This document shows positions 7,895-29,891 of a DNA stretch of 64,000 nt, piece by piece. The position numbers were made by a program, and so were the translations under genes. Where the stretch lies: the NCBI GenBank assembly GCA_964342675.1, contig CAYFFR010000001.1:20981-84980 (forward strand), written 5' to 3'. Within the stretch, counting starts at the first letter, position 1. Each line of letters starts with the position of its first letter. The notes under the pieces are model-generated. The model worked only from the letters and a program-made list of their open reading frames with translations. It ran no database searches and was not told where the DNA came from. This DNA is from an uncultured Gammaproteobacteria bacterium (GTDB lineage Bacteria; Pseudomonadota; Gammaproteobacteria; Magnimaribacterales; D2472).

Positions 7895-9648
7895 TATATA
7901 AAATCAATTAACAGATCTTGAGGTGATACTGCATCTCCTATTGAAACATGAATGTTTTTAACTGTTCCAGAATAAGGAGATTTAACCTCGGTTTCCATCT
8001 TCATAGCTTCAAGTATAAAAAGAACTTGATCTGGTGTAACTGCATCTCCCTCTTGAACAAGAATTTTAAATATATTCCCACCTAAAGGAGCTCTTAACTG
8101 ATGCTGAACATTATCAGATTCCTTATCATCGATATCTGCTTGGTTCTTATGTAGATTATTTCTATCACTAGTAATGTCACCATTTTCATCTACAAAAACA
8201 TTAAATGTTTTCTCATTAATTGTAATGCGATAATTTCCTGAGGATATTTCATCGATCTCTGGAGGTCTTGATTCAAAGAAGCTTGGATTATTTAGATTTT
8301 CAAAATACTGAGTTCCAATTTCTGGGAACAATGCATATATAAGAATATTCTCATCATTCATTTTTATATTTAATTTCTTATCCTGCAATACTTCAGAAAA
8401 ATTATTAGATATATCATCAAAAGTCTCTTCAATTAAATCTGCTGGTCTACAAGTAATCGCAGCCTTGCCATCTAATGCTCGTTCTTGCAGTTCTTTATTT
8501 ACAGGAGCTGGAGTTGCACCATACTCACCAGATAAAAGTGCTTGCGTTTCTTTAGTAATAGTTTTATATCTCTCATTATTCAAAACATTAATAACAGATT
8601 GAGTTCCCACAATTTGTGATGTTGGTGTTACGAGAGGTATATAACCTAAATCCTTCCGCACCTCTGGTATTTCATTTAAAACCTCATCAAACTTATCAGA
8701 TGCATTTTGTTCTTTAAGTTGATTTTCTAAATTAGTGAGCATTCCTCCGGGAACTTGGCTTACAAGTATTCTTGAATCAACCCCTCGTAAAGAACCTTCA
8801 AATTGCTTATATCTTTTTCTAATATTTTTAAAATGTTCTGCTACTGGTTCTAATCCCTTTAAATCTATTGCGGTCTCTCTGTTGGTACCTTCTAAAATTG
8901 CTATTAGTGATTCAGTTGGGGAATGTCCATATGTCATACTCATACTGGAAATTGATGTATCAATATTATCTAAGCCTGCTTCAATGGCTTTGATACCAGT
9001 TGCAGTTGACATACCTGTAGTTGCATGACATTGCATATGAATAGGAATTTCTAATTTTTCTTTTAAAGAACTTACTAGCTCATAAGCTACATAAGGTTTT
9101 AATAATCCTGCCATATCTTTAATTGCAAGAGAATCTGCACCTAAATCTTGAAGCTTCATTGATGTTTCAACCCAATTATCAATGTTATGAACTGGGCTAG
9201 TTGTATAAGAAATAGTTCCTTGAGCATGACCACCAAATTCTTTAGTTGCAACGATAGCCTGTTGCATATTTCTAACATCATTTAAAGCGTCAAATATTCT
9301 AAAAACGTCAACGCCATTTAATTTTGAGCATTCTACAAATTTCTTTACTACATCATCAGAATAATGTTTGTATCCAAGTAAATTTTGACTTCTAAGAAGC
9401 ATCTGTTGCTTTGTTTTAGGCATCATTTTCTTAATTTTTCTTATTCTTTCCCAAGGATCTTCTCCTAGATACCTGATACAAGAATCAAAAATTGCACCTC
9501 CCCAAGATTCTACAGACCAATAACCCACATCATCCATAAGAGTTAAGGCTGCTTCCATATCTTCATATCTAAACCTTGTAGCTAATAGTGACTGGTGTCC
9601 ATCCCTTAGGACGACTTCAGTTATACCGATTGGGTTTTGATTATTCAT
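7894..9648 (-). CDS. oadA: oxaloacetate decarboxylase alpha subunit (carboxyltransferase plus biotinyl domain)
   Basis: 584 aa. N-terminal [20 protein letters not shown]-barrel carboxyltransferase motif and C-terminal biotin attachment motif [10 protein letters not shown]. Confidence 0.9.
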
Positions 9649-10654: not shown

Positions 10655-10831
10655 ATATTTAATAAGAATCTTTCTGCAAATGATATATAAAGGAATAATG
10701 ACAGCTGAAGTTATTAGTATTTCAGTAAGCAAAGAATAGTCTAAAACATCTCTTAGCCATCTAGCTATAAATAAGCTAATAACACCAAGGATACTATAAA
10801 AAATGATAGATTTTTTACTAAATAGCTTCAT
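10646..10831 (-). CDS. possible small two-TM membrane protein
   Basis: ORF-track entry trimmed to the internal Met (MKLFSKKSIIFYSILGVISLFIARW...). It contains two hydrophobic helices. Both ends overlap neighbouring genes and there is no recognisable homology. Confidence 0.25.
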   Translation of the reverse strand: MKLFSKKSIIFYSILGVISLFIARWLRDVLDYSLLTEILITSAVIIPLYIICRKILIKYLI

Positions 10832-12068
10832 TTTTAACTTTAAGTAGAACAATTCCTCCAAGAACAAATAAAATAATAACTGGTAGTAATCCGAGTTGAA
10901 TATTCTCAGGAGTCAATGCTATCCCCACAAGTGTAGGTCCAATAAAGGCGCCTGCTTTACCGAACATATTAAAAAAACCAAAAAATTCTCCAGATTTTTC
11001 AGCAGGGATAATAGAAGCAAAAAATGATCTTGAGCTAGCCTGTATTCCACCTTGAACACTTCCAACCAAAGCTGCAAGGATATAAAACTCAATTGCATTA
11101 GATAAAGTTAAAGAAAAAACAATAACCCCAATATAGATAATTATTGAAAGATTAATAACTAATTTATCATTATATCTATCTGCGATATAAGCCCAAATTA
11201 ATGTAAATGGAAAAGCAACAAATTGAACAATTAATAGACCAACAATAATTGCGCTGTCATCTAATTCTAATAATTTTGCATAAAGAACAGCTGAACTCAT
11301 AACTGTATGGACTCCATCAATATATAAAAAGAATGCTAATAAAAATAAAAATATTTTTTTATTTTGAGATATAGATTTTATTGTTAAATAAATTCTCTTA
11401 AACGGTTCTAAAATAATATTTCCTTGAAAATTATTTTGCATGACTTTTTCTTCTTTGTAAGTTAAGGCTAGAGGAAGGAGAAATATAAGCCACCATATAG
11501 ATACAGATAAAAAAGCAAATAATATTGCTTCAGAGGAATTTACAAATCCAAGATCTTGCCAAAACATAAACATTAAAGCATTTATTAAAAAGAGTAATCC
11601 GCCCCCAAAATAACCCCATGCATAACCAATACCTGATATTTTTGAATATCTATCAGGGCTAGTAATCTTTATTAAAATTTTGTCATATAAAATATTACCA
11701 GCTGAAAAGAAATAATTAGCTACCCCAAAAAAAACTAAAGCAGAAATCCACATTCCTGCATCTGTTAAATACAGCATTCCAACGCAAACAATTGAGATCA
11801 TTGTAAAAACTATAAATACCTTTTTTGTAGATCCATTAATATCTGTTAATGCTCCTATTACAGGAGCACTTACAAATAGAAGAAAATTTGATAGAGCTAC
11901 GGTCCAAAGTAAATAGGATGCAGATTGAATGGGCGATAAGTCCATACCCCAAAATTCAGGAAAGAATAATGGAAAAAATGCCGCTAAGACAGTTGTAGCA
12001 AATGCAGAATTACCAGCATCATAAGCAATCCATGATTTAACTACCTTTGGTAATTTATTTTTGTTCAT
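10818..12068 (-). CDS. MFS transporter, UMF1/Atg22-like family
   Basis: 416 aa, about 12 TM helices. The N-terminal SWIAYDAGNSAFATTVLAAFFPLFF pattern is typical of UMF1-type MFS proteins. Confidence 0.8.
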   Translation of the reverse strand: MNKNKLPKVVKSWIAYDAGNSAFATTVLAAFFPLFFPEFWGMDLSPIQSASYLLWTVALSNFLLFVSAPVIGALTDINGSTKKVFIVFTMISIVCVGMLYLTDAGMWISALVFFGVANYFFSAGNILYDKILIKITSPDRYSKISGIGYAWGYFGGGLLFLINALMFMFWQDLGFVNSSEAILFAFLSVSIWWLIFLLPLALTYKEEKVMQNNFQGNIILEPFKRIYLTIKSISQNKKIFLFLLAFFLYIDGVHTVMSSAVLYAKLLELDDSAIIVGLLIVQFVAFPFTLIWAYIADRYNDKLVINLSIIIYIGVIVFSLTLSNAIEFYILAALVGSVQGGIQASSRSFFASIIPAEKSGEFFGFFNMFGKAGAFIGPTLVGIALTPENIQLGLLPVIILFVLGGIVLLKVKNEAI

Positions 12069-13080
12069 AAAAGATTTCTTTATTCTTCAATCTCTTATCA
12101 ATCAAGCCTCTGTTAAATAAACAATTTAAATGAGCAATTGACTCACCTGTAGCCATTAAAAAATTACCATCATCAATTTTTCTTTTAAATAATACAGAAA
12201 ATACATCAACAGATCTTTTAGGTTCAGATAGAAAGTCTAATAACTTATCTAAAGAAGTCTCATGATGATTGATGATTGTATTCAATCTCTTATGAGCACC
12301 TACAAATGGCCTCCCATGCGCTGGTAATACTAAAACGTCTTCAGGTAATTTATCTAACAATTTTTTACATGAATTCAGCCAATCCTCTAAAGGGTTAGCT
12401 TCAGGTTCAGTTGGAAATACTCCAACATGTGAAGTTATCTTTGGAAGTAATTGGTCTCCAGCAATAAAAATATTTTTATCTTTTGATAATAAGCATAGAT
12501 GTTCCATTGTGTGTCCCTTCCCATCAATGATTTCCCAAGATTCATTGTTGAGAATAATTCTATCGCCATCTTTAAGCCTATTAAATGAGTTAGGTAATCT
12601 GTGAATCATTGAACCAAAAAAACCAAACCTCTCTACATATGCTTTAATCTGTGATTCTGATAAACCTGCTTGTGTGTAAAAATCAATTGCTTCATGAGGA
12701 ACATTGTCTCCAGTGTCAGCAGCAAGGACTCTGCATTGTAAATAATCAGTCCGGCTCATGTATAAAGGGATATTAAAGTTTGAAGTAAACCATCCTGCTA
12801 AACCAATATGATCAGGATGCATATGTGTAACTATCACTCTTTTGAAAGATAGCTTTTCTTTATCAATTAAATCACTCCATGCATTTTTTACATCCTCTAA
12901 AAACATTCCACTATCAACTAAGGTACATTCTTCTTTAGATCCAATAATCCATAAATTAATATGATTTAAGTCCATTGGGAGAGGCATCCTAACCCAATGG
13001 ATGTCTTTTTGAATACTAAATAAAGTTCCATTTTTAGGAACTTCATCAATTGGGAAATCTAACCTTGTGTCTGCATTCAT
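12055..13080 (-). CDS. MBL-fold metallo-hydrolase
   Basis: 341 aa with the HxHxDH motif (VTHMHPDHIG) and later His/Asp ligands (GHTMEH, PAHG). Confidence 0.8.
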   Translation of the reverse strand: MNADTRLDFPIDEVPKNGTLFSIQKDIHWVRMPLPMDLNHINLWIIGSKEECTLVDSGMFLEDVKNAWSDLIDKEKLSFKRVIVTHMHPDHIGLAGWFTSNFNIPLYMSRTDYLQCRVLAADTGDNVPHEAIDFYTQAGLSESQIKAYVERFGFFGSMIHRLPNSFNRLKDGDRIILNNESWEIIDGKGHTMEHLCLLSKDKNIFIAGDQLLPKITSHVGVFPTEPEANPLEDWLNSCKKLLDKLPEDVLVLPAHGRPFVGAHKRLNTIINHHETSLDKLLDFLSEPKRSVDVFSVLFKRKIDDGNFLMATGESIAHLNCLFNRGLIDKRLKNKEIFYEQK

Positions 13081-13195
13081 ATTTTTTTATTATTAAATAT
13101 AATTATGGAAGATAAAAAAACAATTATCGGCTTAAGTGGGTTCATAATAGGTATAGGATGTTTAGTTTTTTTGTTAGGTATTTTAGCTTATTTAA

Positions 13196-13810
13196 TCACC
13201 TAACCTTAATTTTTGGATCCTTTGCATTGCCTCTTAATTTTTGAAGAAATTCGCCTACTTTCACAGGCTTACTAACATCAGCAAAACGATTATACTTGCT
13301 ATCCCAAAACTCTTTCCATGTTGGAAAAAGATCATGAAAGAAACCATCGTATGGATCCTCATTAGGCCAGCGCATTTTTTTCTTACCTATTGGGGGATGA
13401 TTAATATCAGTAGCATACCAATACATAGGCAATCTTTTTTTAAATAACCACACATCATCTAAACGAACATAAACATCCCAATACAGCATTTGCATAATCA
13501 CCCAGTCTGTTTTTGTTTCATGCTCATTTTTTGAGTAGACAAGACCCAATGCTTGATCTTGATTTATAAATTCAATAATGTGATTGCCTGTCTGATGCGA
13601 TGTTCCAAAAAACTTTGATCTAAATGTCTCATCAGCCCATTTTTTTAAAGCCTGTCTTCCAACTCTATCTTTTCCAACACGAACCTCTGGAACAAATAAA
13701 TTAACGTGCATATCGATAGCTCTCATATCTAAAGTGACTGCATATTTTGATACAAGCTGTTTGATTTCTTCTATAGACTCTAGTCGATCAATTCTTGCGT
13801 TAATATCCAT
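13196..13810 (-). CDS. NTF2-fold SnoaL-like (SnoaL_4 type) protein
   Basis: 204 aa. The N-terminal RIDRLESIEEIKQLVSKYAVTLD helix and overall pattern are typical of SnoaL_4/NTF2-like proteins in catabolic clusters. Assignment is by pattern only. Confidence 0.6.
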   Translation of the reverse strand: MDINARIDRLESIEEIKQLVSKYAVTLDMRAIDMHVNLFVPEVRVGKDRVGRQALKKWADETFRSKFFGTSHQTGNHIIEFINQDQALGLVYSKNEHETKTDWVIMQMLYWDVYVRLDDVWLFKKRLPMYWYATDINHPPIGKKKMRWPNEDPYDGFFHDLFPTWKEFWDSKYNRFADVSKPVKVGEFLQKLRGNAKDPKIKVR

Positions 13811-13813
13811 TAA

Positions 13814-14152
13814 TTATCCTGGAGGCCAAGTAAATGGTCTGCCGCTAAGAAGATGAAGGTGAAGGTGAAAAACACTTTGTCCTGCTTTTGCTCCATTGTT
13901 AATAACTACTCTATAAGCATCCTCAACATTTAATTGGCGTGCTACTTCAGTAACTACCCAAAGAAGGTGTCCTAATGTCTCTGTATCTTGTTTTTGAGAT
14001 TTAGATAATTGCGGTATTATCATTTTAGGGATAATAAGAATATGAGTTGGGGCTTGAGGATTAATATCCTCAAAAGCTAAAGAGATATCGTCTTCGTACA
14101 CTATCTTTGCTGGAATTTCTTTATTTATAATTTTTAAAAATAGATCATCCAT
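13814..14152 (-). CDS. HIT-family histidine triad nucleotide-binding protein
   Basis: 112 aa. IPAKIVYEDD... and the histidine triad HLHLHLL. Confidence 0.9.
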   Translation of the reverse strand: MDDLFLKIINKEIPAKIVYEDDISLAFEDINPQAPTHILIIPKMIIPQLSKSQKQDTETLGHLLWVVTEVARQLNVEDAYRVVINNGAKAGQSVFHLHLHLLSGRPFTWPPG

Positions 14153-14351: not shown

Positions 14352-14939
14352 TTAACTCCTTTGTTTTGATCTAAGCAAATATGTAATGACTAGGAATAAA
14401 GTGATAATCCCTAACATTGTGGTAATCAATGCAAACATAGAAGCTTTGCCTAGCAGCAATAAAAGCACTAAAGCAGATCCCCATGTTAAGCAAGCAATAA
14501 TATCAGCACGATAAAACTTATAAAGTTTTAGACTACCAATACCGAGCAGGAAGGGGGTTAAGGATCTTATAACAAATATAAATCTTCCATATATAACTGC
14601 ATATGAACCATATCTACCTATAAATTTTTTAGCTTTTTCTACTTTAGATTGACGATTTTTAAAAAATTTACGGTCCAAAAGTTTTGGTCCTACAAGCTTT
14701 CCTATTAAATATCCTGATAAATCACCTAAATGAGCTCCTAGAATTGCTAAGCTAGCAATCATATAAATACTCAAAATGTCATTGTTATATAAAAACACAC
14801 ATACAGAAAAAAGAATAATGCTAGGAATAAAAATACCAGTGATTACCATTGATTCAAGAAATGCAAATGCAAGAACTGCGGCCCACGCAAACTCAGTGTT
14901 GGTTGATAGAAAATCTTGAATATTTTTAATGTGAATCAT
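14352..14939 (-). CDS. DedA/VTT-domain membrane protein
   Basis: 195 aa. ESMVITGIFIPS...LGAHLGDLSGYLIGKLVGPKLL matches the DedA pattern. Its start overlaps the upstream crotonase stop as ATGA. Confidence 0.7.
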   Translation of the reverse strand: MIHIKNIQDFLSTNTEFAWAAVLAFAFLESMVITGIFIPSIILFSVCVFLYNNDILSIYMIASLAILGAHLGDLSGYLIGKLVGPKLLDRKFFKNRQSKVEKAKKFIGRYGSYAVIYGRFIFVIRSLTPFLLGIGSLKLYKFYRADIIACLTWGSALVLLLLLGKASMFALITTMLGIITLFLVITYLLRSKQRS

Positions 14940-15670
14940 TTAGTAAAAAATTTAGTCACCGCTTGAAGGTTAGCCTCTGAACCAAATAATGCTTTCATTC
15001 CATCTGCTTCTAATTTTCTACTCAATAAAACTTTATCTTTATCAAATGACTTAAGAATACGTTTAGTTTCGATTAATGATTCTTGTGATAATGCATTAAT
15101 TTTTTTACTAAGCTTTAAAGCCTTATCAAGTGGATTATTAGATACGTTTGTTGCTAAGCCTAATGAGTAATATTCATCAGCCAAAATCCATTCAGAAGAA
15201 GTTAATAGTTCAAATGCTTTATGAAAACCAACTTTATTGTAAAGTAAATAAGTGCTTCCAAGTTCAGGAACTAGACCAAGCTCTGTAAATGGGTACTTCA
15301 TCTTGAATTTATGATCTAAGAAAATAAAATCAAAATGCAATAAAATTGTAGCGCCTCCTCCAACTGCCATACCTTCGGCTGCAGCAATTAGAGGTTTATT
15401 AAAATTCATCAGTGCATCAATGCAGGTTTCAAAGGGCTCTTCATATTTATTCCCCTGATCTCCAACCATACTTTCTAAATCTACCCCCGATGAAAAATTT
15501 CCACCAGCTCCAGTAATTACAACTGATTTAATATTATTATTAAGATCAGCCTCGATGAGAGCATCTCTAAGCAACATCCAAATCTCAGCATCAAGTGCAT
15601 TAATTTTTTTAGGTCGATTTAATGTTAGAAGAAGAGTTTGATGAACATTCTTACGTAAAAGTTTTGTCAT
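14936..15670 (-). CDS. enoyl-CoA hydratase/isomerase (crotonase fold)
   Basis: 244 aa. LTLNRPKKINAL, ITGAGGNFSSGVDL and AAAEGMAVGGGATILL are oxyanion-hole crotonase motifs. Confidence 0.8.
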   Translation of the reverse strand: MTKLLRKNVHQTLLLTLNRPKKINALDAEIWMLLRDALIEADLNNNIKSVVITGAGGNFSSGVDLESMVGDQGNKYEEPFETCIDALMNFNKPLIAAAEGMAVGGGATILLHFDFIFLDHKFKMKYPFTELGLVPELGSTYLLYNKVGFHKAFELLTSSEWILADEYYSLGLATNVSNNPLDKALKLSKKINALSQESLIETKRILKSFDKDKVLLSRKLEADGMKALFGSEANLQAVTKFFTK

Positions 15671-16464
15671 TTTCCTTTAAAGTTTGGTTTTCTTTTCTCA
15701 GCAAAAGCAGTAAGACCTTCCATCATATCTTCGGTAGTAAATATTGGTTCTCCTATTTCTAATTCTTTTGCTAAAGCTTCTGTCTCATGATAGCTTTCAT
15801 CATATTCTCTTAGTGACTTTGTAATCGCCTGAATTGATAATGGTGCATTTTCAGCAATAGATTTAGCTATTTCAAATGCTTTATCTAAGGCTTTTCCATC
15901 TTCAACAATATGTCCAATTAAACCAAAACGTAAAGCTTCTTCAGCATTCACTCTTCTGCCAGTTAGCAACATCTCAGCAGCCAGTGTATATGGTATTTGA
16001 CGTCTTAATCTAATTGATGAGCCACCAAGAGGGAATAAGCCTCGCAACGGTTCAGTTAGTCCAAAAGTAGCAGATTTACCAGAAACCCTTATATCAGTTC
16101 CTTGAAGTATTTCAGTACCGCCAGCTAAAGCAAAACCTTCAACTGCAGCAATAATAGGTTTGGTTGGGCGATTGTGTCTTAGTAGAGCTTGCCAATGCAG
16201 ATCAGGAATTGTTTTAAGTTTTTCCATCATGTCTGAATCTTCTTGTCCATCTTTCATTGCTGATAAATCTGCACCAGAGCAAAATGTGCCTCCAGCACCA
16301 GTTAATATTGCACATCTTAAATTCTTATCATCATTAAGTTTCCTCCATGCTTCATAAACGGTTACAAGCATCCCTGGACTCAAAGCATTTCTTTTTTCAG
16401 GTCTATTTAAAGTAATAATTAAAATATGTCCTTGTTCTTCTACTATTGCATGATTTTTATCCAT
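15667..16464 (-). CDS. enoyl-CoA hydratase (crotonase fold)
   Basis: ITLNRPEKRNAL, LTGAGGTFCSGADL and AAVEGFALAGGTEIL motifs. I prefer the ATG at 16464 (MDKNHAIVEE...), which avoids a 25-nt overlap with the upstream gene. The track start is 16497. Confidence 0.85.
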   Translation of the reverse strand: MDKNHAIVEEQGHILIITLNRPEKRNALSPGMLVTVYEAWRKLNDDKNLRCAILTGAGGTFCSGADLSAMKDGQEDSDMMEKLKTIPDLHWQALLRHNRPTKPIIAAVEGFALAGGTEILQGTDIRVSGKSATFGLTEPLRGLFPLGGSSIRLRRQIPYTLAAEMLLTGRRVNAEEALRFGLIGHIVEDGKALDKAFEIAKSIAENAPLSIQAITKSLREYDESYHETEALAKELEIGEPIFTTEDMMEGLTAFAEKRKPNFKGK

Positions 16465-16472
16465 AATATTTC

Positions 16473-17618
16473 CTATATATTTTTTCCTACAATCCACATT
16501 GCAAAAAACTGAGAGGCACCACCATAGGCATGACCCATAGCAATATTTGCTCCTTCAACTTGATGTTTATCTGCCTTCCCCATAACCTGTAAACAAGCTT
16601 CACCAAATCTTATCATTCCAGAGGCTCCAATTGGATTAGATGATAAGACACCACCAGACATATTAATAGGTAAGTCACCGGTTAAACTAGTTGTTCCATT
16701 TTCAGTTAATTTCCATCCATTACCTAAATTACAAAAATGTAAATTCTCAAGCCACATTGGTTCATACCAAGAAAAAGGAACATATATTTCAGCACAATCA
16801 ATCTCTTTAAAAGGATTAGTTATTCCTGCTTGATTATAAATATCTTTAGCACAATCTTTACCTCCTTGAGGATTCACTTCATCTCTTCCGGCTGAAAGCG
16901 TTCCTTCAGACCTAACTGCCATACCTTTAATCCAAGCTGCATTTCTATCCTTAGCTAATTTTTTGTTTGATATTACTAAGGCACATGCGCCGTCGGAAGA
17001 AGGACAACTTTCTAAATATCTTAGTGGCTCCCATAACATAGGTGTATCTGAAACCATCTTTTCATCTATTCCAGGTACATGTAAATGCGCTAAGGGATTC
17101 AGCAGTGCATTTTGACGATCTTTTGCTGCTACGATCCAACCAATATTTTCAGGAGCATTATATCTTCTAATATACTCTCTCATATAAGGAGCAAAATATC
17201 CTCCAGCACCAGCATTAATGTGTGGAGAGTATGGGTATTTTGGCGATAATGCCCATGTTGCATTAGATTCAGATTGTTTTTCAAATGTAACAGTTAAGAC
17301 TGTATCAAAGCTTCCAGAACAAACATGTGATGCTGCTATAACAGCAGTACTACCACCAACACTACCAGCAGTATGCACTCTCATAACAGGCTTTCCTACA
17401 CCCCCAATTGCATCAACTAAAGACAACTCAGGCATTACTAACCCCTCAAACATATCTGGAGCTTTTCCCAATATAACTGCATCGATTGCATCCCAATCAA
17501 CATCTGCATCCTTCATAGCATTATTGATAGCTTCTCTCACTAAACCACCGATAGAAACATCTCTCCTTTTAGAATCATATTTTGTTTGGCCTACACCAAT
17601 GACTGCAGCACGTTTCAT
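16473..17618 (-). CDS. thiolase-fold protein, SCP-x/Ltp-like, apparently lacking the nucleophilic Cys
   Basis: 381 aa from MKRAAVIGVGQTKYD. I prefer the ATG at 17618, which forms an ATGA overlap with the upstream stop. The thiolase-fold blocks are present, but the nucleophile block reads RVHTAGSVGGSTAV. The C-terminal blocks read NMSGGVLSSNPIGASG and GHAYGGAS. Confidence 0.8.
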   Translation of the reverse strand: MKRAAVIGVGQTKYDSKRRDVSIGGLVREAINNAMKDADVDWDAIDAVILGKAPDMFEGLVMPELSLVDAIGGVGKPVMRVHTAGSVGGSTAVIAASHVCSGSFDTVLTVTFEKQSESNATWALSPKYPYSPHINAGAGGYFAPYMREYIRRYNAPENIGWIVAAKDRQNALLNPLAHLHVPGIDEKMVSDTPMLWEPLRYLESCPSSDGACALVISNKKLAKDRNAAWIKGMAVRSEGTLSAGRDEVNPQGGKDCAKDIYNQAGITNPFKEIDCAEIYVPFSWYEPMWLENLHFCNLGNGWKLTENGTTSLTGDLPINMSGGVLSSNPIGASGMIRFGEACLQVMGKADKHQVEGANIAMGHAYGGASQFFAMWIVGKNI

Positions 17619-18670
17619 TGCTTTCTCTCTAAATGCACTAGCATATTTTGTTGCAAACATGGACCAGAGGTAGCATGTGCAAGAGCATTACTATAGTTAT
17701 TATTTAATAATGACTCATAAGACTTACCAATCGCATCTAAACCAGCAGCCATAACAACATTGCCTGATAATGGGCCACCAGATAAATTAACAGGAATATC
17801 TTGTAAACCAATTAAATTGCTAATAAATGGTGCTTCAAAACTAAACTGAGTATGTAATTCAGCAAAATCTAATTTTATTTGATCAAGCTGTATTAATTTA
17901 GCAAGACTAGTTATGCTTTTAGAGGTTGTCAGATCTCTAGCACCTAAATTAGAAGTTTCAATATTGTGATGAATTGAATTAATACATACAAACTTGCGAT
18001 TGATATTTTCAGCAAACTCTTTAGTGCCTATGATCATAGCTGAGGCACCATCTGATATAGGTGAACAATCAAATTTATTTAAGGGTGACGAAATAAATTC
18101 TGAGTCTAAATATTGATCTAATGATGGTGATGATTGTACGAGAGAATTTTGATTATTTTGTGCATTTGTCATTGCCTGTTGAATTGCATCAAACATTGAA
18201 TCTTTTGTGATGATAGATCTATCTAATAAAACTCTAGCTTGGAGAGCAGCTAAAGATACTCTATCAGCCCACAAAGGGGCTAAATAATATGGGTCAGTTT
18301 GTAAGGATACAATTGAATCTAGATTACCAGGTGAGGATTTACCAAAACCGTAAATTAATGCGCTCTCTGCATCACCCATTTGAATTTTTAAAATTGATTC
18401 AAACAATGCCCATGCCGCATCCATCTCTACATGAGATTCTTTAATTGGCGGATTTGTTTGAATTGCTGACAAGCCTTCTACAAAAGCAAATGCTGCGCCC
18501 TGTAAATAATCACAACTACCCGAACACGTAAAATCAATGTTGTCTTGATTTAATCCAGTTTGTTTAAAAACTTCATGGACGACAGGCATAATAAGCTCAA
18601 CCTCATTAGCAGCGCCTGCATCAGACAAGATTTGGTTTTGAGCGTAACCTAGTATGTAAATATCCTTCAT
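17615..18670 (-). CDS. divergent thiolase-fold protein (second subunit type), also without the nucleophilic Cys
   Basis: 351 aa. The region aligned to the nucleophile block reads SHVEMDAAWALFESILKIQMGDAESALIYGFGKSS. Also present are SPISDGASAMIIG and NLSGGPLSGNVVMAAG. Alignment was done by eye. Confidence 0.7.
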   Translation of the reverse strand: MKDIYILGYAQNQILSDAGAANEVELIMPVVHEVFKQTGLNQDNIDFTCSGSCDYLQGAAFAFVEGLSAIQTNPPIKESHVEMDAAWALFESILKIQMGDAESALIYGFGKSSPGNLDSIVSLQTDPYYLAPLWADRVSLAALQARVLLDRSIITKDSMFDAIQQAMTNAQNNQNSLVQSSPSLDQYLDSEFISSPLNKFDCSPISDGASAMIIGTKEFAENINRKFVCINSIHHNIETSNLGARDLTTSKSITSLAKLIQLDQIKLDFAELHTQFSFEAPFISNLIGLQDIPVNLSGGPLSGNVVMAAGLDAIGKSYESLLNNNYSNALAHATSGPCLQQNMLVHLERKQ

Positions 18671-19173
18671 TTTGTTTTAAAAATATAGCTATCAGGGTCC
18701 ATATCAGGCTCACCTGTTGGTTGAAACCATTTAATATTTTCTAATGTTGTATCCCATTCTGATTTATCTTTCCAAACAGCTTTCACTCGCATTCCAATTC
18801 TGATTTCTGCTAAATCAATATCTTGGATCAGATGAAGGAATGAGATGTCTGCACCATCAAGCCTTATCATTGCACAAACATATGGTGGGACAATTGGGTT
18901 GCCTGGTATTGGAATATGAACAATGGTAAATGATTCTACTGATCCAGTATCAGGTAATTCAACTTCCTCATTGGTTGGGATCCCATCTCTTGGACAACTT
19001 CCTCTTGGAGGAACATATACAGCTTTACATTTAGGGCATTTTTGACCAACTAATTTACCTAATGCAACTTTTTTTAAAAATCTTGTTGTAGCAAATCCAG
19101 CTGTATAGTTATAATTTAATGATATTGGTGATTCAAAATAATCTTTGTTTTCTTCAGTCATTTTTGAGCTCAA
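18667..19173 (-). CDS. DUF35 OB-fold/zinc-ribbon protein (thiolase/aldolase partner)
   Basis: 168 aa. Zinc-ribbon-like CPKCKAVYVPPRGSCPRDG is followed by an OB-fold region (GSVESFTIVH...RIGMRVKAVW). Confidence 0.75.
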   Translation of the reverse strand: MSSKMTEENKDYFESPISLNYNYTAGFATTRFLKKVALGKLVGQKCPKCKAVYVPPRGSCPRDGIPTNEEVELPDTGSVESFTIVHIPIPGNPIVPPYVCAMIRLDGADISFLHLIQDIDLAEIRIGMRVKAVWKDKSEWDTTLENIKWFQPTGEPDMDPDSYIFKTK

Positions 19174-19600
19174 AATATTTAATATCTAAAATGGTTTTAG
19201 TTTTTTTAGAGTTCCAAACAACGGTAACTTTCTGACCCATATAAAGATCTTCTTCTTGACAATTTGTTACCATATGAAGCATGCAAGAGGATGTACCATC
19301 AAGATTAATTAGAGCAAAAGCAAATGGTTTATTGAGTAGATGATGATCCCTAGGCTTATTGATCCAAGTAAAGGATTTAATTGTTCCTGTAGATGAAACC
19401 TCAACAAAATCCTTTAATTCTTCACATGTAACTGGATCAAATTCTGCTGCTGGAACAAGTATATCCCCATTAGAGTTTTTTGTTCCTAATATTTTATTTT
19501 TAGATAACGCATCAAAAAATTTACCAATGATGGGTCCTGTAGATCGTTTATATGTATATTCTAATTTAAAGGGAGCTCGTAACATTTTATCCTTATTCAT
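19154..19600 (-). CDS. DUF35-like OB-fold protein with a degenerate zinc ribbon
   Basis: 148 aa. It has the same layout as the neighbouring DUF35 protein (GTIKSFTWIN...YMGQKVTVVW), but the CxxC...C positions are replaced (GTKNSNGDILVPAAEFDPVTCEE). Confidence 0.65.
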   Translation of the reverse strand: MNKDKMLRAPFKLEYTYKRSTGPIIGKFFDALSKNKILGTKNSNGDILVPAAEFDPVTCEELKDFVEVSSTGTIKSFTWINKPRDHHLLNKPFAFALINLDGTSSCMLHMVTNCQEEDLYMGQKVTVVWNSKKTKTILDIKYFELKND

Positions 19601-21254
19601 CTTCGTTGATCATATTATTACTTTTAGAGTTAATTAAAACATGTTTCATCACTTTACCAGAAGCATTTCTTGGTAGTGACTCTTGCACTATTTCCCAAAG
19701 AGTTGGTATTTTAAAATATGCGAGATGCTCTTTTAAGTAATTTTCTAGATCTTTAAGATTAACATCTAGATCTTTCATCACTACATAAGCCTTTACTTCT
19801 TGTCCCAGATCTTTGTTTGGCACTCCAACTACAGCTGACTCTGTTACTTTATCATGAACATCTAACAGTAATTCTATCTCTTGCGGGTAAACATTTTCTC
19901 CTCCCCTCAATATTAAATCGGTTCTTCTAGAAGATATATAAAATAAACCATTGGATATGTAACCAAAATCACCGGTCTTCAAAAATCTGTTTGTAGATAG
20001 GACTTTTTTTGTTTCTGAAGGCTTATTATAGTAACCAAGCATCACTGATGGGCTTCTAACAAATATTTCACCCTCTACATTGTCTGATGTAATTACATCT
20101 CCATCATTATCTCTTAATTCTATTTCTATAGTTGGCATAGGCTGACCAGGGGATGTGGGATGCTTGTCCATTGGATCTCCCCAATTTATTATTGTAATAG
20201 CGCCAGATTCAGTTAAGCCATAACCATAACCAAAATTATGCTTCACATTAGGAAAAACTAATTTTGTTTTTTTAATAAGCTTCTCAGGAATTGGAGCTCC
20301 GCCACCCCCAATTACCAACATGCTTGTCAAATCATATGCTTTATTTTGAGCAAAATTAACCACTCTTCTTAAAGCAGTAGGAACAGCTCCGCCCCACGAA
20401 GTGATTTTAAATTTTTCAATAATACCTATTATTGCTTTAGCGGAAAATTTACCTTCATATAAAAATGTAGATGTTCCCGCAAATAATGATGTAACTGCTC
20501 CTGCGGATAATCCAGAAACATGAAACAAGGGAGAGGTCAGTAAAGTTTTAGGTGCATTCTTGGTCCAATCAACACCCAGCTTAGAACTTCTCATAGATAC
20601 AGATGCACCTTGAAGTAATTGAAGCATAGTATTAGATATCATTGATCGATGGGAAGTCATAACACCTTTTGGCGAACCTGTAGTTCCACTTGTATATAAC
20701 AAACATGCGCATTCATCTTCATCAGCATCATAAAAATTATTATCAGAGTCTACTAATTGAGTAAAAGAAAAATGATCAGTAATCAATTTATCAGAATTTT
20801 TATATGAGTTTAATCTGTCAAATCTTTTTTGATCTGCAATTAATAGTTTAGGCTGTGCATCATTTAAAGCTTTTATTGCTTCTTTACCATTCCACCAACC
20901 ATTTAATGCGCAAGCTATAGCGCCAATTGATACTGATGCCCAAAAGAAAATAATCCATTCAAAAGAATTTGCACCATATATTGCAATCCTATCTCCTGGT
21001 TGAATTTTATATTTTGATCTTAGTAAATGTATAGCTTTAGTAACTAATTCATAATGTTCAATAAAAGATATTTCTTTATTTTGATTTAATAAATACAATT
21101 TATTTTCATGATTTAATGAAGACGTTAATAGTTTTGCTAGATTTTTTGGCCGGTTTTTAAAAACTGATAATTTTTTACCTAATACCACCTCTTCAGTTAA
21201 TTCAAAAAATGCGTTTTCCTTTAAAAGGGAATTTAAGTCTTGATCAGTATGCAT
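19593..21254 (-). CDS. acyl-CoA synthetase (AMP-forming, ANL superfamily)
   Basis: 553 aa. LLYTSGTTGSPKGV (AMP-binding core), GYGLTESG, TGDFGY, RGGENVYPQEIE and C-terminal PRNASGKV. Confidence 0.9.
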   Translation of the reverse strand: MHTDQDLNSLLKENAFFELTEEVVLGKKLSVFKNRPKNLAKLLTSSLNHENKLYLLNQNKEISFIEHYELVTKAIHLLRSKYKIQPGDRIAIYGANSFEWIIFFWASVSIGAIACALNGWWNGKEAIKALNDAQPKLLIADQKRFDRLNSYKNSDKLITDHFSFTQLVDSDNNFYDADEDECACLLYTSGTTGSPKGVMTSHRSMISNTMLQLLQGASVSMRSSKLGVDWTKNAPKTLLTSPLFHVSGLSAGAVTSLFAGTSTFLYEGKFSAKAIIGIIEKFKITSWGGAVPTALRRVVNFAQNKAYDLTSMLVIGGGGAPIPEKLIKKTKLVFPNVKHNFGYGYGLTESGAITIINWGDPMDKHPTSPGQPMPTIEIELRDNDGDVITSDNVEGEIFVRSPSVMLGYYNKPSETKKVLSTNRFLKTGDFGYISNGLFYISSRRTDLILRGGENVYPQEIELLLDVHDKVTESAVVGVPNKDLGQEVKAYVVMKDLDVNLKDLENYLKEHLAYFKIPTLWEIVQESLPRNASGKVMKHVLINSKSNNMINEDE

Positions 21255-21295: not shown

Positions 21296-22042
21296 ATGGA
21301 CACAAAAAAAATTGCATTAATAACTGGCGGTGCTTCAGGGATAGGATTGGCAACCGTGAATAGATTTACAGCTGAAGGCATTAAAACTATAGTTTTTGAT
21401 TCGGATATTAATAATAAAAATAACGCTAAATCAGATACTAATGATTACATCTCTTATCAAGTGGATGTCTCTAATCATGATTCTATTAAAGAAGCATTTG
21501 CTCAACTTAGTGAATCATCGCATATACCCACTATTTTAGTAAATTGTGCTGGAATAAGCCCTCCTCTGAATCCGTTACATAAATATACTCTGAAAGATTG
21601 GCAAAACTGTCTTGATATAAATCTAACAGGTACATTCCTAATGTGTAAAGAATTCATGAATTGTTTTATTCAGAATAAATTAGAAGCTGGTGCTATTGTA
21701 AATATATCATCAATAATGGGTTCTCGGGCAAGTGCTGCTCAAGCTGTATATAGTGCTAGTAAACATGGTGTTGTTGGTATAACAAAATCTATAGCTCAAG
21801 ATTATGCAGGTTTAAATATAAGAGCTAATGCTGTAGGTCCTGGAGCAGTTAAAACTCCAATGACAGATAGTATTGTTAAAGATGATCCTAATGTTATGGA
21901 ATTAATGAATACTAGGATACCTATGAAGAGATTTGCAAAACCTGAAGAGATTTCAAACCTAATATATTTTTTAGCTAGTGATGAATCTTCTTACATTACT
22001 GGTTCTTATATACCAATTGATGGCGGGTATCTTGCAACCTAA
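21296..22042 (+). CDS. SDR oxidoreductase (FabG-like)
   Basis: 248 aa. ITGGASGIG, NCAG, YSASKHG catalytic motif, C-terminal ITGSYIPIDGGY. Confidence 0.85.
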   Translation: MDTKKIALITGGASGIGLATVNRFTAEGIKTIVFDSDINNKNNAKSDTNDYISYQVDVSNHDSIKEAFAQLSESSHIPTILVNCAGISPPLNPLHKYTLKDWQNCLDINLTGTFLMCKEFMNCFIQNKLEAGAIVNISSIMGSRASAAQAVYSASKHGVVGITKSIAQDYAGLNIRANAVGPGAVKTPMTDSIVKDDPNVMELMNTRIPMKRFAKPEEISNLIYFLASDESSYITGSYIPIDGGYLAT

Positions 22043-22847
22043 GAGTCCTATTTCATTGATAACAGGAGCAGCAAGTGGAATAGGTCAAGCTATTGCAATT
22101 CATGCATCAAATTTAAATCATAAACTAGTGCTTATTGATATTGATGAAAGTAGTCTAAAAAAAACTGCTAGCCTACTTAAGCATAATGATGCCTTGATCT
22201 ATTCAATAGATGTATCTGATATAAATCAAATAAAAACTATATATAAAGAAATTAAATCTAAATTTGGTGGAATTAATTATATGTTTAACAATGCAGGAAT
22301 ATTTATTGAAGGCAGATCCTGGAAAGTAAAACCAAAATTATGGTCAAGAATTTTTGATGTTAATGTTTTATCAATAGTTAATATGTTAAATGTGTTTTTA
22401 GACGATATGATTTATTGTGATGAGGATTGTCATGTCATCAACACCTCATCGATGGCAGGCTTAATTGTTGGAGGTTATCTATCACCTTATACAACATCAA
22501 AGCATGCTGTAATAGGTTTATCAAGGAGCCTTTATGAAGAAATGAATTCATCAAATCATAGCGTTGGGGTTTCGGTTCTATGCCCAGGTGAAGTGAAAAC
22601 AGAGATTATTAATAATGAAAGAAATATTCTTGGCTTAAAAGATGATTTATTAGATCGAGATAAAAATACCTTAGAATATAAAGAATTTTTAGCTAATGGC
22701 GTAAAAGAAGGCATGGAACCAATAGAAGTAGCTAAAATTGTATTTGAAGCAATCGCACATAAAAAGTTTTGGATCTTTACTCACTCTGATTTTAAAGAAA
22801 CTTATGAGGGCTATGCTAACGAAATCATTGAAGGGATGAAGATCTAG
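22020..22847 (+). CDS. SDR oxidoreductase
   Basis: ITGAASGIG, NNAG and YTTSKHA motifs. The track start (GTG at 21978) would overlap the previous SDR by 65 nt. ATG 22020 or TTG 22032 is more plausible, so the start is uncertain. Confidence 0.8.
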   Translation: MAGILQPKSPISLITGAASGIGQAIAIHASNLNHKLVLIDIDESSLKKTASLLKHNDALIYSIDVSDINQIKTIYKEIKSKFGGINYMFNNAGIFIEGRSWKVKPKLWSRIFDVNVLSIVNMLNVFLDDMIYCDEDCHVINTSSMAGLIVGGYLSPYTTSKHAVIGLSRSLYEEMNSSNHSVGVSVLCPGEVKTEIINNERNILGLKDDLLDRDKNTLEYKEFLANGVKEGMEPIEVAKIVFEAIAHKKFWIFTHSDFKETYEGYANEIIEGMKI

Positions 22848-23944
22848 TCTTTATCCAAATTCTCTAAAATTTTATCAAACGAGACTATTTTAAAATTCTG
22901 GTTATATAAAATTCCATTTGAATCTGTATTGAAACCATCCTGTATCACCATCATCCCTTTTGGAAAAATTTTAAAATTGCCATTATTGATAGCTATACCA
23001 TCAGTATCTTGAACTCCATCTATGTTTGAAGCACCCACTACAATAAAGCTACCAACAAATTGATTAGGATATTTTCTTCTATAAATATTGAAACTTGAAT
23101 TGCCTTGGGAAGATAAAATAATATACCCATCATCTTCTGATGTTCTGTATATTGCCACACCTTCTGGATCACCCACAATATTATGATCTCTAGAATCTAT
23201 CACATGAATCAAATCTAAAGATGATGAGTCATACATTTTTAGGTATCCTTTATTGCCTTCTCTAGAAATCAAAATAAATTGATTTTCATCATCAAAAACA
23301 CATCCCTCAGCTTCATTACCAAAAGGAGATGTATTCTTCTCATCTTCAATAAGGTTAATAGTTTTTTCTAATGTTCTGTTGTTTAAGTTCCAATATTGAA
23401 TATTTTGGCCCTCTTCTTCTGTTAGGATCGCATATAGATTGTTACCAACAAAGCCAATACAAACTCCATATATATCCATCTTGGCTTGTAGATGAGCATG
23501 CTCAATATCCTCTGAAAATGCGTTATTTGGATTGAGTTTAAAATATTTAAAAAGATTATCAGTTGGAAGTATCCAATAATCTAATGTGCTTGCAGATCTA
23601 TTCGATGACACTACATGAAGTTTATTATCGCTGGCCCTTAGATCAATATTATTGATCTTTCCTAATTTAGTGTAGCTAATCTGGTTACCAAAAATATCAT
23701 AAACATAAATACCAGATTTCTTATCGGTACCAAAAATTAATGACTCTTGCGGATTGTTAGGATTGAACCATATCGCTGGATCATCAGCTGCATCATTTAT
23801 AGATATAACTGGCTCAGTTTCATAATCAGGAGTAACTATAAATGGAACGTCTGCAAAAATATGTAAGCATAAAAAAAAGGCTAGGATTAGGTTGACCTTC
23901 CCTATAATCTTAAATCTAGTTGTTGTAGGTAAATCCGATAGCAT
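22844..23944 (-). CDS. beta-propeller phytase (3-phytase, BPP family), secreted
   Basis: DDPAIWFNPNNPQESLIFGTDKKSGIYVYDIFGNQ...NNIDLR closely parallels the Bacillus BPP N-terminal blades. Signal peptide RFKIIGKVNLILAFFLCLHIFA. Every in-frame ATG (23944 to 23983) lies inside the 3' end of the TonB receptor gene. Confidence 0.85.
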   Translation of the reverse strand: MLSDLPTTTRFKIIGKVNLILAFFLCLHIFADVPFIVTPDYETEPVISINDAADDPAIWFNPNNPQESLIFGTDKKSGIYVYDIFGNQISYTKLGKINNIDLRASDNKLHVVSSNRSASTLDYWILPTDNLFKYFKLNPNNAFSEDIEHAHLQAKMDIYGVCIGFVGNNLYAILTEEEGQNIQYWNLNNRTLEKTINLIEDEKNTSPFGNEAEGCVFDDENQFILISREGNKGYLKMYDSSSLDLIHVIDSRDHNIVGDPEGVAIYRTSEDDGYIILSSQGNSSFNIYRRKYPNQFVGSFIVVGASNIDGVQDTDGIAINNGNFKIFPKGMMVIQDGFNTDSNGILYNQNFKIVSFDKILENLDKD

Positions 23945-26459: not shown

Positions 26460-26497
26460 AATTCTTTTATTTGTTGCATAAGATTATAGAAATCATA

Positions 26498-26516
26498 TGT
26501 GTCATCTTTGTGAAGA
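26498..26516 (+). promoter_or_regulatory. Pho-box-like tandem direct repeat (site 1)
   Basis: TGTGTCAT-CTTT-GTGAAGA. The first heptamer GTGTCAT matches the E. coli Pho-box heptamer CTGTCAT at 6 of 7 positions. The second unit starts at the same offset as in sites 2 and 3. The site lies 9 bp from a perfect TATAAT on the minus strand (26488-26483) that faces the TonB receptor/phytase operon. Confidence 0.4.
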
Positions 26517-26609
26517 TATAAAAATCATTTAGCCACATTATTGGAACATTTTGTTTCTTAATTTTTTATCAATATTGTAATTAATTAAACATTTGTCGAT
26601 AATAAATCT

Positions 26610-27200: not shown

Positions 27201-27213
27201 AATATTAAATTAA

Positions 27214-28951: not shown

Positions 28952-28985
28952 ATATAATTCTTTTATCTTTAGCCTAAACTAAAAA

Positions 28986-29004
28986 TGTGTCAAATTAGTG
29001 AAAA
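28986..29004 (+). promoter_or_regulatory. Pho-box-like tandem direct repeat (site 2)
   Basis: TGTGTCAA-ATTA-GTGAAAA. Core and spacing are identical to site 1. A TATTAT -10 hexamer (29015-29020) follows 10 bp later, about 30 bp upstream of ppk2. This is the same geometry as E. coli pstS. Confidence 0.45.
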
Positions 29005-29051
29005 GATTGTACTTTATTATGAATAGAACAAATATCCTTTAAGATATAAAA

Positions 29052-29888: not shown

Positions 29889-29891
29889 AAC

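Follow-up and report, generated by a model that had tools for sequence, protein, structure and literature searches.

The operon analyzed here lies on the reverse strand, between positions 14936 and 21254, of a 64,000-nucleotide stretch of DNA (contig CAYFFR010000001.1, hereafter the window) from an uncultured marine gammaproteobacterium, and comprises seven co-directional open reading frames (ORFs). The window has a G+C content of about 32%. Its exact proteins were also found in the NCBI metagenome-assembled genome (MAG) GCA_054229025.1, in a TARA Oceans scaffold and in a Logan assembly, and the closest species representatives among the matches listed were genomes of the SAR86 cluster (63-69% identity for the 351-amino-acid (aa) protein described below). 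An earlier interpretation made from the letters alone (the sequence-only reading) had placed here, at exactly these coordinates, seven overlapping genes for an acyl-CoA synthetase, two DUF35 proteins, two thiolase-fold proteins and two crotonases, and the ORF listing as well as the Pfam and NCBIfam matches agreed with this gene content. Most gene junctions are ATGA or 8-nt start/stop overlaps, so that the genes are translationally coupled. A scan for promoters and terminators was uninformative, since it returned fewer matches than in shuffled sequence.

The first gene (19593-21254) encodes a CasG-like acyl-CoA synthetase of 553 aa with the Pfam domains AMP-binding and AMP-binding_C. It is followed by the gene of DUF35a (19154-19600; 148 aa, or 143 aa from an alternative start at 19585), an OB-fold protein without zinc ribbon that matched only OB_ChsH2_C, and by that of DUF35b (18667-19173; 168-aa ORF), which joins a zinc ribbon (zf-ChsH2) to an OB fold (OB_ChsH2_C). 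The fourth gene (17615-18670) encodes an Ltp4-like thiolase-fold subunit of 351 aa, matched over its full length by NCBIfam PRK07937 and by no Pfam model, and the fifth (16473-17660; 395-aa ORF) an Ltp3-like thiolase-fold subunit with Thiolase_N, Thiolase_C_1 and NCBIfam PRK08313 matches. The last two genes encode crotonases, namely an EchA19-type enoyl-CoA hydratase (crotonase 1; 15667-16497; 276-aa ORF; Pfam ECH_1, NCBIfam PRK07799) and crotonase 2 (14936-15670; 244 aa; Pfam ECH_1), in which the first catalytic Glu is absent. Three of these ORFs probably start further downstream: homologue lengths and other gene calls point to MTEEN at 19161 for DUF35b (164 aa) and to MDKNH at 16464 for crotonase 1 (265 aa), and the likely start of the Ltp3-like protein is Met15 of the ORF (17618; 381 aa), which gives an ATGA overlap with the preceding stop. 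On the forward strand, antisense to the Ltp3-like gene, lies an ORF of 151 codons (17218-17673) with an Ala/Thr/Ser/Pro-rich product, most likely a chance ORF.

The Ltp3-like protein matched PRK08313 over its full length with 626.6 bits (cut-off 514), compared with 731, 734 and 667 bits for the homologues from Rhodococcus, Tsukamurella and Spongiibacter, and it is 57-62% identical to its actinobacterial homologues (BLASTP). The Ltp4-like protein is 41-42% identical over its whole length to the corresponding actinobacterial proteins (BLASTP). The pairs from Rhodococcus, Tsukamurella, Spongiibacter and the window all match the same two models, PRK07937 and PRK08313. When the 351-aa protein was searched against plasmids with tblastn, eight actinobacterial records were retrieved. 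In Tsukamurella and Streptomyces the module consists of an acyl-CoA synthetase, a crotonase, a protein of about 310 aa annotated as "OB-fold nucleic acid binding" and two thiolase-domain proteins of about 350 and 390 aa. In Rhodococcus sp. OK519 it is accompanied by an F420 oxidoreductase of the Rv3520c family (TIGR03559, 498 bits), a PRK07798 ligase and a steroid 3-ketoacyl-CoA thiolase, and the Rhodococcus gene order equals the published order Rv3520c, Rv3521, ltp4 and ltp3 of Mycobacterium tuberculosis. Because of the shared NCBIfam models, the collinear order and the EchA19-like crotonase, the operon is identified by sequence comparison as the SAR86 counterpart of the actinobacterial module made up of Rv3521 (a tandem DUF35 protein), ltp4 and ltp3 together with echA19. 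The link to Rv3521-Rv3523 was drawn through the Rhodococcus locus, the shared models and the published gene order; Rv3521 itself has been described as a hypothetical protein adjoining ltp4 (PMC9782250).

By BLASTP, DUF35a corresponds to the N-terminal half (38-40% identity) and DUF35b to the C-terminal half (40-52% identity) of the tandem-DUF35 protein that is fused in actinobacteria. The fused proteins have 309 and 313 aa, and the window genes are collinear with their halves; the window thus encodes in two genes what the actinobacteria encode in one. A frameshift artefact as the cause of the split was rejected, since three independent assemblies of the organism show it alike, as do 50 of 84 loci (the pair is fused in the other 34). 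DUF35a and DUF35b share 27% identity and the Ltp3-like and Ltp4-like proteins of the window 25%, and because of these low values both pairs are best regarded as old duplicates.

The sequence-only reading had assigned a zinc ribbon of the form CPKC...C to one DUF35 protein and its loss to the other. The distribution of the ribbon was as described, and its ligand set was corrected to Cys3Asp (Cys46, Cys49, Cys60 and Asp63 of DUF35b). In the DUF35a family the first 70 residues contain no Cys (61 of 79 sequences) or a single one (18 of 79), so that none has the Cys residues needed for a ribbon. The ligands in the DUF35b family are CCCC in 40 and CCCD in 14 of 81 sequences, and all of them were lost in Rhodococcus and Prescottella, for which reason some members of the family seem to do without the ribbon. 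The pattern CCCC was found in four other SAR86 species (L008-L012), and a gammaproteobacterial MAG with a SAR86-like gene order (L013) has CCCD. Among the protein cluster representatives, one of 642 aa (P0344) joins a DUF35 zinc ribbon and OB fold (residues 199-270) to an Ltp4-like segment (405-598); as a single representative that may be a natural fusion or an artefact of assembly or gene calling, it was set aside as evidence.

The distribution of the module was determined with a profile of the Ltp4-like protein in one genome per GTDB species, and at least 587 species were found to carry it. Carriers among the matches listed include SAR86, Halieaceae/OM60, Spongiibacteraceae, Zhongshania, Endozoicomonas, a Sterolibacterium MAG (L049), Myxococcota and Spirochaetes as well as Rhodococcus, Prescottella, Saccharopolyspora and Microthrixaceae. 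A profile search of 1.84 billion cluster representatives gave 395 matches with E values up to 1e-30, so that the family is compact and well delimited. The order was DUF35a-DUF35b-Ltp4-Ltp3 in all 84 loci that allowed both DUF35 halves to be scored, which came from Proteobacteria, Actinobacteria, Myxococcota and Spirochaetes, and in the window, too, two DUF35 domains, the first without zinc ribbon, lie directly upstream of the thiolase-fold pair. The arrangement of two DUF35 and two thiolase-fold proteins, which the sequence-only reading had not recognised as that of the named Ltp3/Ltp4 family, is therefore real but is the universal layout of this family and not unusual; a module of this kind is already known and named, and the arrangement is not new.

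Catalytic positions of the thiolase-fold pair were located by hidden Markov model (HMM) alignments to the solved thiolases 7YVY, 6ESQ, 4YZO and 3ZBG. The motifs quoted in the sequence-only reading were all present in the proteins named, namely RVHTAGSVGG (residues 94-103), NMSGGVLSSNPIGASG (333-348) and GHAYGGAS (376-383) in the 395-aa ORF and ESHVEMDAAWAL (78-89) and NLSGGPLSGNVVMAAG (295-310) in the 351-aa protein. In the Ltp3-like protein Gly99 occupies the position of the nucleophilic Cys (VHTAGS versus AACASG of 7YVY), Y293-V-P-F that of the HDCF motif (AEIYVPFSW versus AEVHDCFTI of the Leishmania SCP2-type thiolase 3ZBG) and Asn342 that of the GHP His. In the Ltp4-like protein the nucleophile loop is replaced by a shortened loop, E-S-H-V-E-M-D-A-A-W, the HDCF position reads HTQF and the GHP His position is occupied by Asn304. 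The Cys of the thiolase HDCF motif thus corresponds to Pro in the Ltp3-like and to Gln in the Ltp4-like protein. A conserved Cys/His/Cys triad was looked for in both proteins by these alignments and was found in neither. Moreover, 13 residues between HDCF and NxSGG are deleted in the Ltp4-like protein, whereas the Ltp3-like protein keeps that loop.

Residue counts in homologues from the fetched loci (65 complete Ltp3-like and 83 Ltp4-like sequences) demonstrated that these replacements are properties of the families. The Gly, YVPF and Asn replacements were identical in all 65 Ltp3-like sequences, and the G376-H-A-Y-G-G loop near the classical CxG position was invariant except for Tyr379, which was present in 64. 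The segment E78-S-H-V-E-M-D84 was identical in all 83 Ltp4-like sequences. Their HDCF motif has the form H/Y-[AT]-[PQ]-F (first position His in 43 and Tyr in 35 of 83), the HDCF Cys is never restored, and at the GHP position 78 sequences have Asn and 5 have His. Cys49 (82 of 83) and Cys338 (58 of 83) of the Ltp4-like family do not align with any thiolase catalytic position. The alignments and the family counts therefore bear out two earlier observations on this DNA, that neither thiolase-fold protein has a nucleophilic Cys and that the C-terminal His/Cys blocks are altered, the HDCF Cys and the GHP His being absent from both window proteins.

The AlphaFold2 (AF2) models of both proteins have the five-layer thiolase fold, with template modelling (TM) scores of up to 0.88. 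The Ltp3-like model (mean predicted local distance difference test (pLDDT) 81.4, predicted TM score (pTM) 0.87) gave Foldseek E values down to 1e-32 and TM scores of 0.80-0.88, and the Ltp4-like model (pLDDT 83.0, pTM 0.86) E values down to 1e-24 and TM scores of about 0.74-0.85 normalised to the query. The best matches (TM about 0.75-0.88) belonged to the DUF35-partnered and SCP2 clade and comprised the zebrafish SCP2-thiolase, the Pyrococcus and Methanothermococcus thiolases, ST0096 of Sulfolobus, Ltp2 (6OK1), BbsB, PhlC and Sal (9MYR); SCP2-thiolase, the archaeal thiolases, ST0096, Ltp2 and Sal were all among those of the Ltp3-like model. The SCP2-type and archaeal thiolases are also among the best PDB sequence matches and form the same structural clade. 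However, the archaeal and Pyrococcus proteins have the nucleophilic Cys, the SCP2-type proteins the HDCF Cys, and these proteins the GHP His, whereas the window pair has none of the three.

Two thiolase-fold aldolases allow a closer comparison, Ltp2 with ChsH2(DUF35) from Thermomonospora curvata (6OK1) and the bile-acid aldolase Sal with Shy(DUF35) from Comamonas testosteroni (9MYR). Both are thiolase-fold dimers flanked by two DUF35 domains. In each of them Gly stands in place of the nucleophile, and the residue that opens the HDCF motif is a catalytic Tyr; Ltp2 uses Tyr344 and Sal uses Cys304 as the catalytic acid, and Sal is stated to be unable to perform thiolysis (PMC12329534). The sequence-only reading had listed the Sal-type aldolases as Cys-less; Sal is not strictly so, since its catalytic acid is a Cys. 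Residues of Ltp2 and Sal were mapped through the published HDCF/GHP equivalences (PMC12329534), alignments to 3ZBG, 4U4E, 7YVY and 4YZO and motif spacing, rather than by direct alignment to 6OK1 or 9MYR; by motif spacing Tyr344 of Ltp2 falls at the GHP His position. The Ltp3-like protein shares with Ltp2 the thiolase fold (TM about 0.8, 25% identity), the absence of the nucleophilic Cys, a Tyr as first residue of the YDHF/HDCF motif and a DUF35 partner. Of the Ltp2 catalytic pair Tyr294 (YDHF)/Tyr344, the YVPF motif keeps the first Tyr, but Asn stands at the inferred Tyr344 position (65 of 65), so that the pair is incomplete. With Sal, which is likewise proteobacterial, it shares the Gly and the Tyr base at 20% and 14% identity for the pair, but the catalytic dyad Tyr302/Cys304 (YDCY) is not present, since Pro occupies the position of Cys304.

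The subunit composition also differs. Ltp2, which cleaves a tertiary beta-hydroxyacyl-CoA and releases propionyl-CoA, is a homodimer whose DUF35 partner is the C-terminal domain of a MaoC hydratase, and the DUF35 domain of Sal, with a Cys3His ribbon, is likewise fused to a MaoC hydratase. In the window the two thiolase-fold subunits differ from each other and both DUF35 proteins are free-standing, and no MaoC domain was found among the scanned window ORFs of at least 120 aa. Unlike in ChsH2-Ltp2 or Shy-Sal, the hydratase is therefore not tethered to the lyase.

Crotonase 1 exceeded the cut-off of PRK07799 (369 versus 316 bits) and reached 345.7 bits against the EchA19 model (cut-off 400). Among solved structures it is closest to 4F47 and 6WYI, both of EchA19 (277 and 274 bits, the next being 211), and it is 52-53% identical to the crotonase beside the actinobacterial ltp genes (BLASTP). 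The reference for the catalytic pair of this fold is rat enoyl-CoA hydratase with Glu144 and Glu164. By eye, crotonase 1 keeps both catalytic Glu residues (GGTE and LTE). Crotonase 2 came near the cut-off of no NCBIfam model; it reads GGGATI where hydratases read GGGxE and keeps only the second Glu (FTELG), and its best PDB relatives, 3QMJ and 3FDU, also have no first Glu. One may speculate from these residues that it is an enzyme of the isomerase or decarboxylase type. Most gammaproteobacterial loci have a homologue of crotonase 2 (34-58% identity) close to the module, but the actinobacterial loci do not. In Spongiibacter (L006/L007, 15071-21059) the genes downstream of the module encode a family III CoA-transferase/racemase-like protein, a nitroreductase, crotonase 2, a 4HBT thioesterase, a SnoaL/LEH-like protein and a cytochrome P450; these genes, absent from the SAR86 operon, are possibly further genes of the pathway.

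The acyl-CoA synthetase of the operon has its best NCBIfam match in NF052580 (CasG, steroid-24-oyl-CoA synthetase; 523 bits, cut-off 750). It is kept at the same position in the SAR86 loci with 58-68% identity, but is merely 24-32% identical to the module-adjacent ligase of other phyla. In most loci outside SAR86 a ligase of the FadD19/PRK07798 type adjoins the module (Rhodococcus 807 bits, Spongiibacter 690 bits against PRK07798). The window encodes such a FadD19-type acyl-CoA synthetase as well (39948-41567, forward strand, 539 aa; 611.7 bits, cut-off 543), about 19 kb from the operon and 40% identical to the Rhodococcus ligase beside the ltp genes. A CasG-like ligase within the operon and a FadD19-type ligase elsewhere are thus two features particular to SAR86. 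The latter is the last of three adjacent forward-strand genes (37485-41567), preceded by those of a short-chain dehydrogenase (SDR; 257 aa) and a 567-aa FAD_binding_2 flavoprotein (38245-39948). The flavoprotein belongs to PRK07121 (PRK07121.1-4, 658.7 bits) and matched the KstD models only weakly, and it was not taken as a KstD. Since the FadD19 ligase type adjoins the Ltp3/Ltp4 module in most lineages other than SAR86, this cluster may belong to the same pathway as the operon.

Compared with the actinobacterial module, the operon of the window thus shows the same NCBIfam families, gene order, EchA19-type crotonase and replacements at the catalytic positions, at 41-62% identity. It differs by the split DUF35 pair, by its ligases, by the addition of the crotonase with a single Glu and of a translationally coupled DedA protein, and by an Ltp4-like protein whose score is just under the curated PRK07937 cut-off. 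The hosts differ, too, the window stemming from a streamlined marine gammaproteobacterium and showing no steroid-ring genes.

The genetics of the family come from actinobacteria. Ltp3 and Ltp4 (Rv3523 and Rv3522 of M. tuberculosis) were characterised genetically in Rhodococcus rhodochrous DSM 43269. Ltp3, Ltp4 and FadD19 are needed for sitosterol and campesterol and not for cholesterol (PMC6273163; PMC10832528), and ltp3 and ltp4 are each reported as essential for the degradation of branched sterols (PMC6273163; PMC6678751). The proposed route summarised in a review leads from C26 oxidation through CoA activation by FadD19, 24(25)-desaturation, C28 carboxylation and hydration to C24-C25 cleavage, which is ascribed there to "a heteromeric aldol-lyase (Ltp3-Ltp4)" that frees propionyl- or acetyl-CoA, after which the carboxylate left over has to be converted to a thioester once more (PMC6678751). 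Moreover, phytosterol induced ltp3, ltp4, echA19 and fadD19 about 70- to 97-fold in a Mycobacterium (PMC6593523).

Orthology to ltp3 and ltp4 supports the reading of the Cys-less thiolase-fold proteins with their DUF35 partners as a retro-aldolase, and the operon is probably a real, working C-C lyase module. The retro-aldolase on a branched acyl-CoA with crotonase-type hydration, as proposed from the letters alone, fits the published data on ltp3, ltp4, echA19 and fadD19. The same proposal had considered the substrate not deducible from the window; this did not hold, since orthology limits the substrate class to acyl-CoAs with a beta-alkyl branch, among which a sterol side chain is the most plausible. 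On balance we consider a retro-aldol lyase acting most plausibly on the sterol side chain to be the likelier function. A sterol substrate is favoured by the genetics of the family, all of which concern C24-branched sterols, and by crotonase 1 and the in-operon ligase, whose nearest relatives belong to steroid pathways.

The sequences show the orthology, the gene order, the translational coupling and the loss of the thiolase catalytic residues, and from these the complex, its chemistry, the catalytic subunit and the substrate are inferred. In the mechanism envisaged, a carboxylate would be converted to its CoA thioester by one or both candidate ligases, the CasG-like enzyme of the operon and the FadD19-type enzyme (39948-41567). 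The EchA19-type crotonase would then hydrate the 2-enoyl-CoA with an alkyl branch at C3 to a tertiary 3-hydroxyacyl-CoA, which could not be oxidised by a dehydrogenase. This intermediate would be cut between C2 and C3 in a retro-aldol reaction by a heterodimer of the Ltp3-like and Ltp4-like proteins, giving a ketone and propionyl- or acetyl-CoA. By analogy with the alpha-beta-beta-alpha assemblies of Ltp2-DUF35 and Sal-DUF35, each thiolase-fold subunit is probably capped by one DUF35 protein. The most plausible substrate would be the C24-alkylated side chain of phytoplankton sterols, and the CasG-like ligase would fit the re-activation step after cleavage of the branch.

As catalytic base, the invariant Tyr in the Ltp3-like protein (Y293 of the 395-aa ORF, Y279 of the 381-aa protein) is the most likely residue, because it occupies the same position as the catalytic Tyr of Ltp2 and Sal. 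The Ltp3-like protein appears to be the better candidate for the catalytic subunit, because it has Gly and Tyr as in Sal and Ltp2, is more strongly conserved across phyla (about 60% versus 41%) and keeps the loop between HDCF and NxSGG. Its proton donor would have to differ from those of both known aldolases, since Pro stands at the position of Cys304 of Sal and Asn at the presumed position of Tyr344 of Ltp2. Candidates are the invariant His and Tyr of the GHAYGG loop, His96 and the ESHVEMD loop of the Ltp4-like protein.

Several observations weigh against a retro-aldol lyase of this kind. The best match of the Ltp4-like protein, PRK07937 "lipid-transfer protein", covers it end to end but with 398.6 bits it stays just below the curated cut-off of 419 (Rhodococcus 642, Tsukamurella 593 and Spongiibacter 499 bits); the protein carries all family-invariant residues, and its position and coupling are as elsewhere in the family, which together speak strongly for membership although the curated score is narrowly missed. 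The AF2 models are of monomers only. The Ltp3-like protein has neither of the two known aldolase proton donors, the invariant polar ESHVEMD loop of the Ltp4-like subunit could bear catalysis too, and the ligase of the operon is not of the FadD19 type. No enzymology of the Ltp3/Ltp4 family was found in the literature searched, and "aldol-lyase" is there a conclusion from genetics. The window contains no recognisable steroid-ring genes, and specifically no Rieske KshA, extradiol dioxygenase or acyl-CoA dehydrogenase. In a survey of 2016 no evidence of the degradation of sterol alkyl side chains was reported for Proteobacteria (PMC4810484). Finally, the module occurs in taxa not known as sterol degraders, such as Endozoicomonas, Zhongshania and Streptomyces, in the last on plasmids beside a polyketide cluster.

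The breadth of this distribution, from Streptomyces plasmids through Zhongshania and Endozoicomonas to Myxococcota and Spirochaetes, and the missing ring genes would also be expected if the same retro-aldol chemistry served a non-sterol substrate. The module would then remove beta-alkyl branches in general, from isoprenoid- or phytol-derived acids, branched alkanoates or terpenoid side chains, and the actinobacterial sterol degraders would have recruited it. Zhongshania is presumably, by its name, a hydrocarbon degrader. The Spongiibacter neighbours (CoA-transferase, nitroreductase, thioesterase, SnoaL/LEH and P450) are not diagnostic of steroids, and SAR86 was reported to carry phytanoyl-CoA dioxygenase genes for phytol-type substrates (PMC11582366). 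However, the only genetics of the family concern C24-branched sterols, the crotonase is nearest to EchA19 and the in-operon ligase to the steroid-24-oyl-CoA synthetase model, and one carrier is a Sterolibacterium MAG. Moreover, the main marine carriers, SAR86 and OM60/Halieaceae, had already been predicted to be steroid degraders in the 2016 survey (PMC4810484). A study of 2024 on the first SAR86 isolate and more than 700 genomes reported widespread genes for the beta-oxidation of steroid side chains (PMC11582366), with cyp125 homologues in one family and ring catabolism in some lineages (PMC11582366; PMC4810484). A non-sterol substrate is therefore regarded as a tentative alternative to the sterol side chain.

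Much less room is left for the view that one or both thiolase-fold proteins are dead scaffolds and that the real chemistry resides in the crotonases and the ligase. The Ltp4-like protein would suit such a role, being more divergent (41% versus about 60%), without Pfam match and shortened by 13 residues between HDCF and NxSGG. Yet polar residues of the active-site loops are strictly invariant in both families across several phyla, and ltp3 and ltp4 are both reported as essential for branched-sterol degradation, which makes this explanation very improbable. Least credible is a thiolase with an unconventional nucleophile and thiolytic or Claisen chemistry like that of BbsAB, the archaeal thiolase/HMG-CoA synthase/DUF35 complex or PhlABC, a reading rejected because of how the catalytic residues align. 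Its fold and its partnership with DUF35 are indeed common to true thiolases and acyltransferases (TM 0.75-0.88 to SCP2-thiolase, the Pyrococcus and Methanothermococcus proteins, BbsB and PhlC) and Cys49 and Cys338 are frequent in the Ltp4-like family, but these two align with no catalytic position, the nucleophilic Cys is replaced in every sequence (all 65 Ltp3-like and all 83 Ltp4-like ones), Asn stands for the GHP His in 65 of 65 and 78 of 83, the HDCF Cys is absent in all, and Sal, which also has Gly at the nucleophile position, is stated to be incapable of thiolysis.

The operon is embedded in a conserved neighbourhood. The gene of a DedA/VTT-domain membrane protein (14352-14939, reverse strand; Pfam VTT_dom from precomputed annotation) is coupled to that of crotonase 2 by an ATGA overlap as an eighth gene and lies at the same position in four other SAR86 species (L008, L009, L011 and L012). 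It is followed on the same strand (10818-14152) by HIT, SnoaL_4 (204 aa), MBL-fold and MFS/ATG22-like genes, and the run DedA-HIT-SnoaL_4-MBL-MFS is kept in the same four loci. Upstream, two divergently transcribed SDRs of 248 and 289 aa (21296-22847, forward strand; Pfam adh_short) are found at the same position in these loci with 48-60% identity, L013 having only the 248-aa SDR; their tie to the operon is their conserved position alone. The whole neighbourhood, from the upstream divergent SDRs to the downstream DedA, HIT, SnoaL_4, MBL-fold and MFS genes, is thus common to the SAR86 species.

Other genes of the window are recorded as side observations. The alpha and beta subunits of a Na+-translocating oxaloacetate decarboxylase are encoded on the reverse strand (6605-9648), with the gamma gene just upstream in the matching NCBI contig; this is a biotin enzyme and not an acyl-CoA carboxylase of the kind that sterol C28 carboxylation needs. 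A phosphate-scavenging neighbourhood comprises genes for a phytase, a TonB-dependent receptor (its ORF overlaps that of the phytase), a PHO4 transporter, PPK2, Ppx/GppA and a histidine kinase with its response regulator (22844-33230) together with a PhoD-like phosphatase (51673-52641). Two further forward-strand genes, unexpected for a streamlined marine gammaproteobacterium, encode a luciferase-like oxidoreductase of the F420-dependent family TIGR03619 (47983-48876; 192.7 bits, cut-off 166.9) and an indoleamine 2,3-dioxygenase homologue (60649-61791; Pfam IDO, 295 bits).

For the purpose of annotation, the gene set already has a name and a genetic characterisation, and the operon adds a divergent marine orthologue of it. 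The interest lies at the level of the family, in a four-protein architecture and an active site unlike that of Ltp2 or Sal. In the literature searched, one paper names Ltp3, Ltp4 and DUF35 without connecting them, and there is apparently no discussion of the fact that the family always comes with two DUF35 domains, one of them devoid of a zinc ribbon in every case. Because its active-site make-up differs from that of both solved steroid aldolases, the Ltp3/Ltp4 family is a natural next target of enzymology after Ltp2 and Sal. It is conceivable, if doubtful at present, that the module forms an asymmetric four-protein lyase with a third type of thiolase-fold aldolase site, built on the Ltp3-like Tyr base without the Cys of Sal or the second Tyr of Ltp2, that takes the C24-alkyl branch off phytoplankton sterols in SAR86 and OM60/Halieaceae. 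Such a site may involve the invariant His-Ala-Tyr within the GHAYGG loop or else, in the Ltp4-like subunit, the invariant loop E-S-H-V-E-M-D.

SAR86 can account for several percent of the bacteria in the surface ocean, and an alkyl group at C24 is present in most algal sterols. For these two reasons a working C24-branch lyase, if true, would bear on the marine recycling of membrane sterols. It would agree with the recently proposed role of SAR86 as a consumer of lipids and steroid side chains and would mean that abundant marine Proteobacteria degrade the alkyl side chains of sterols, for which the survey of 2016 reported no evidence.

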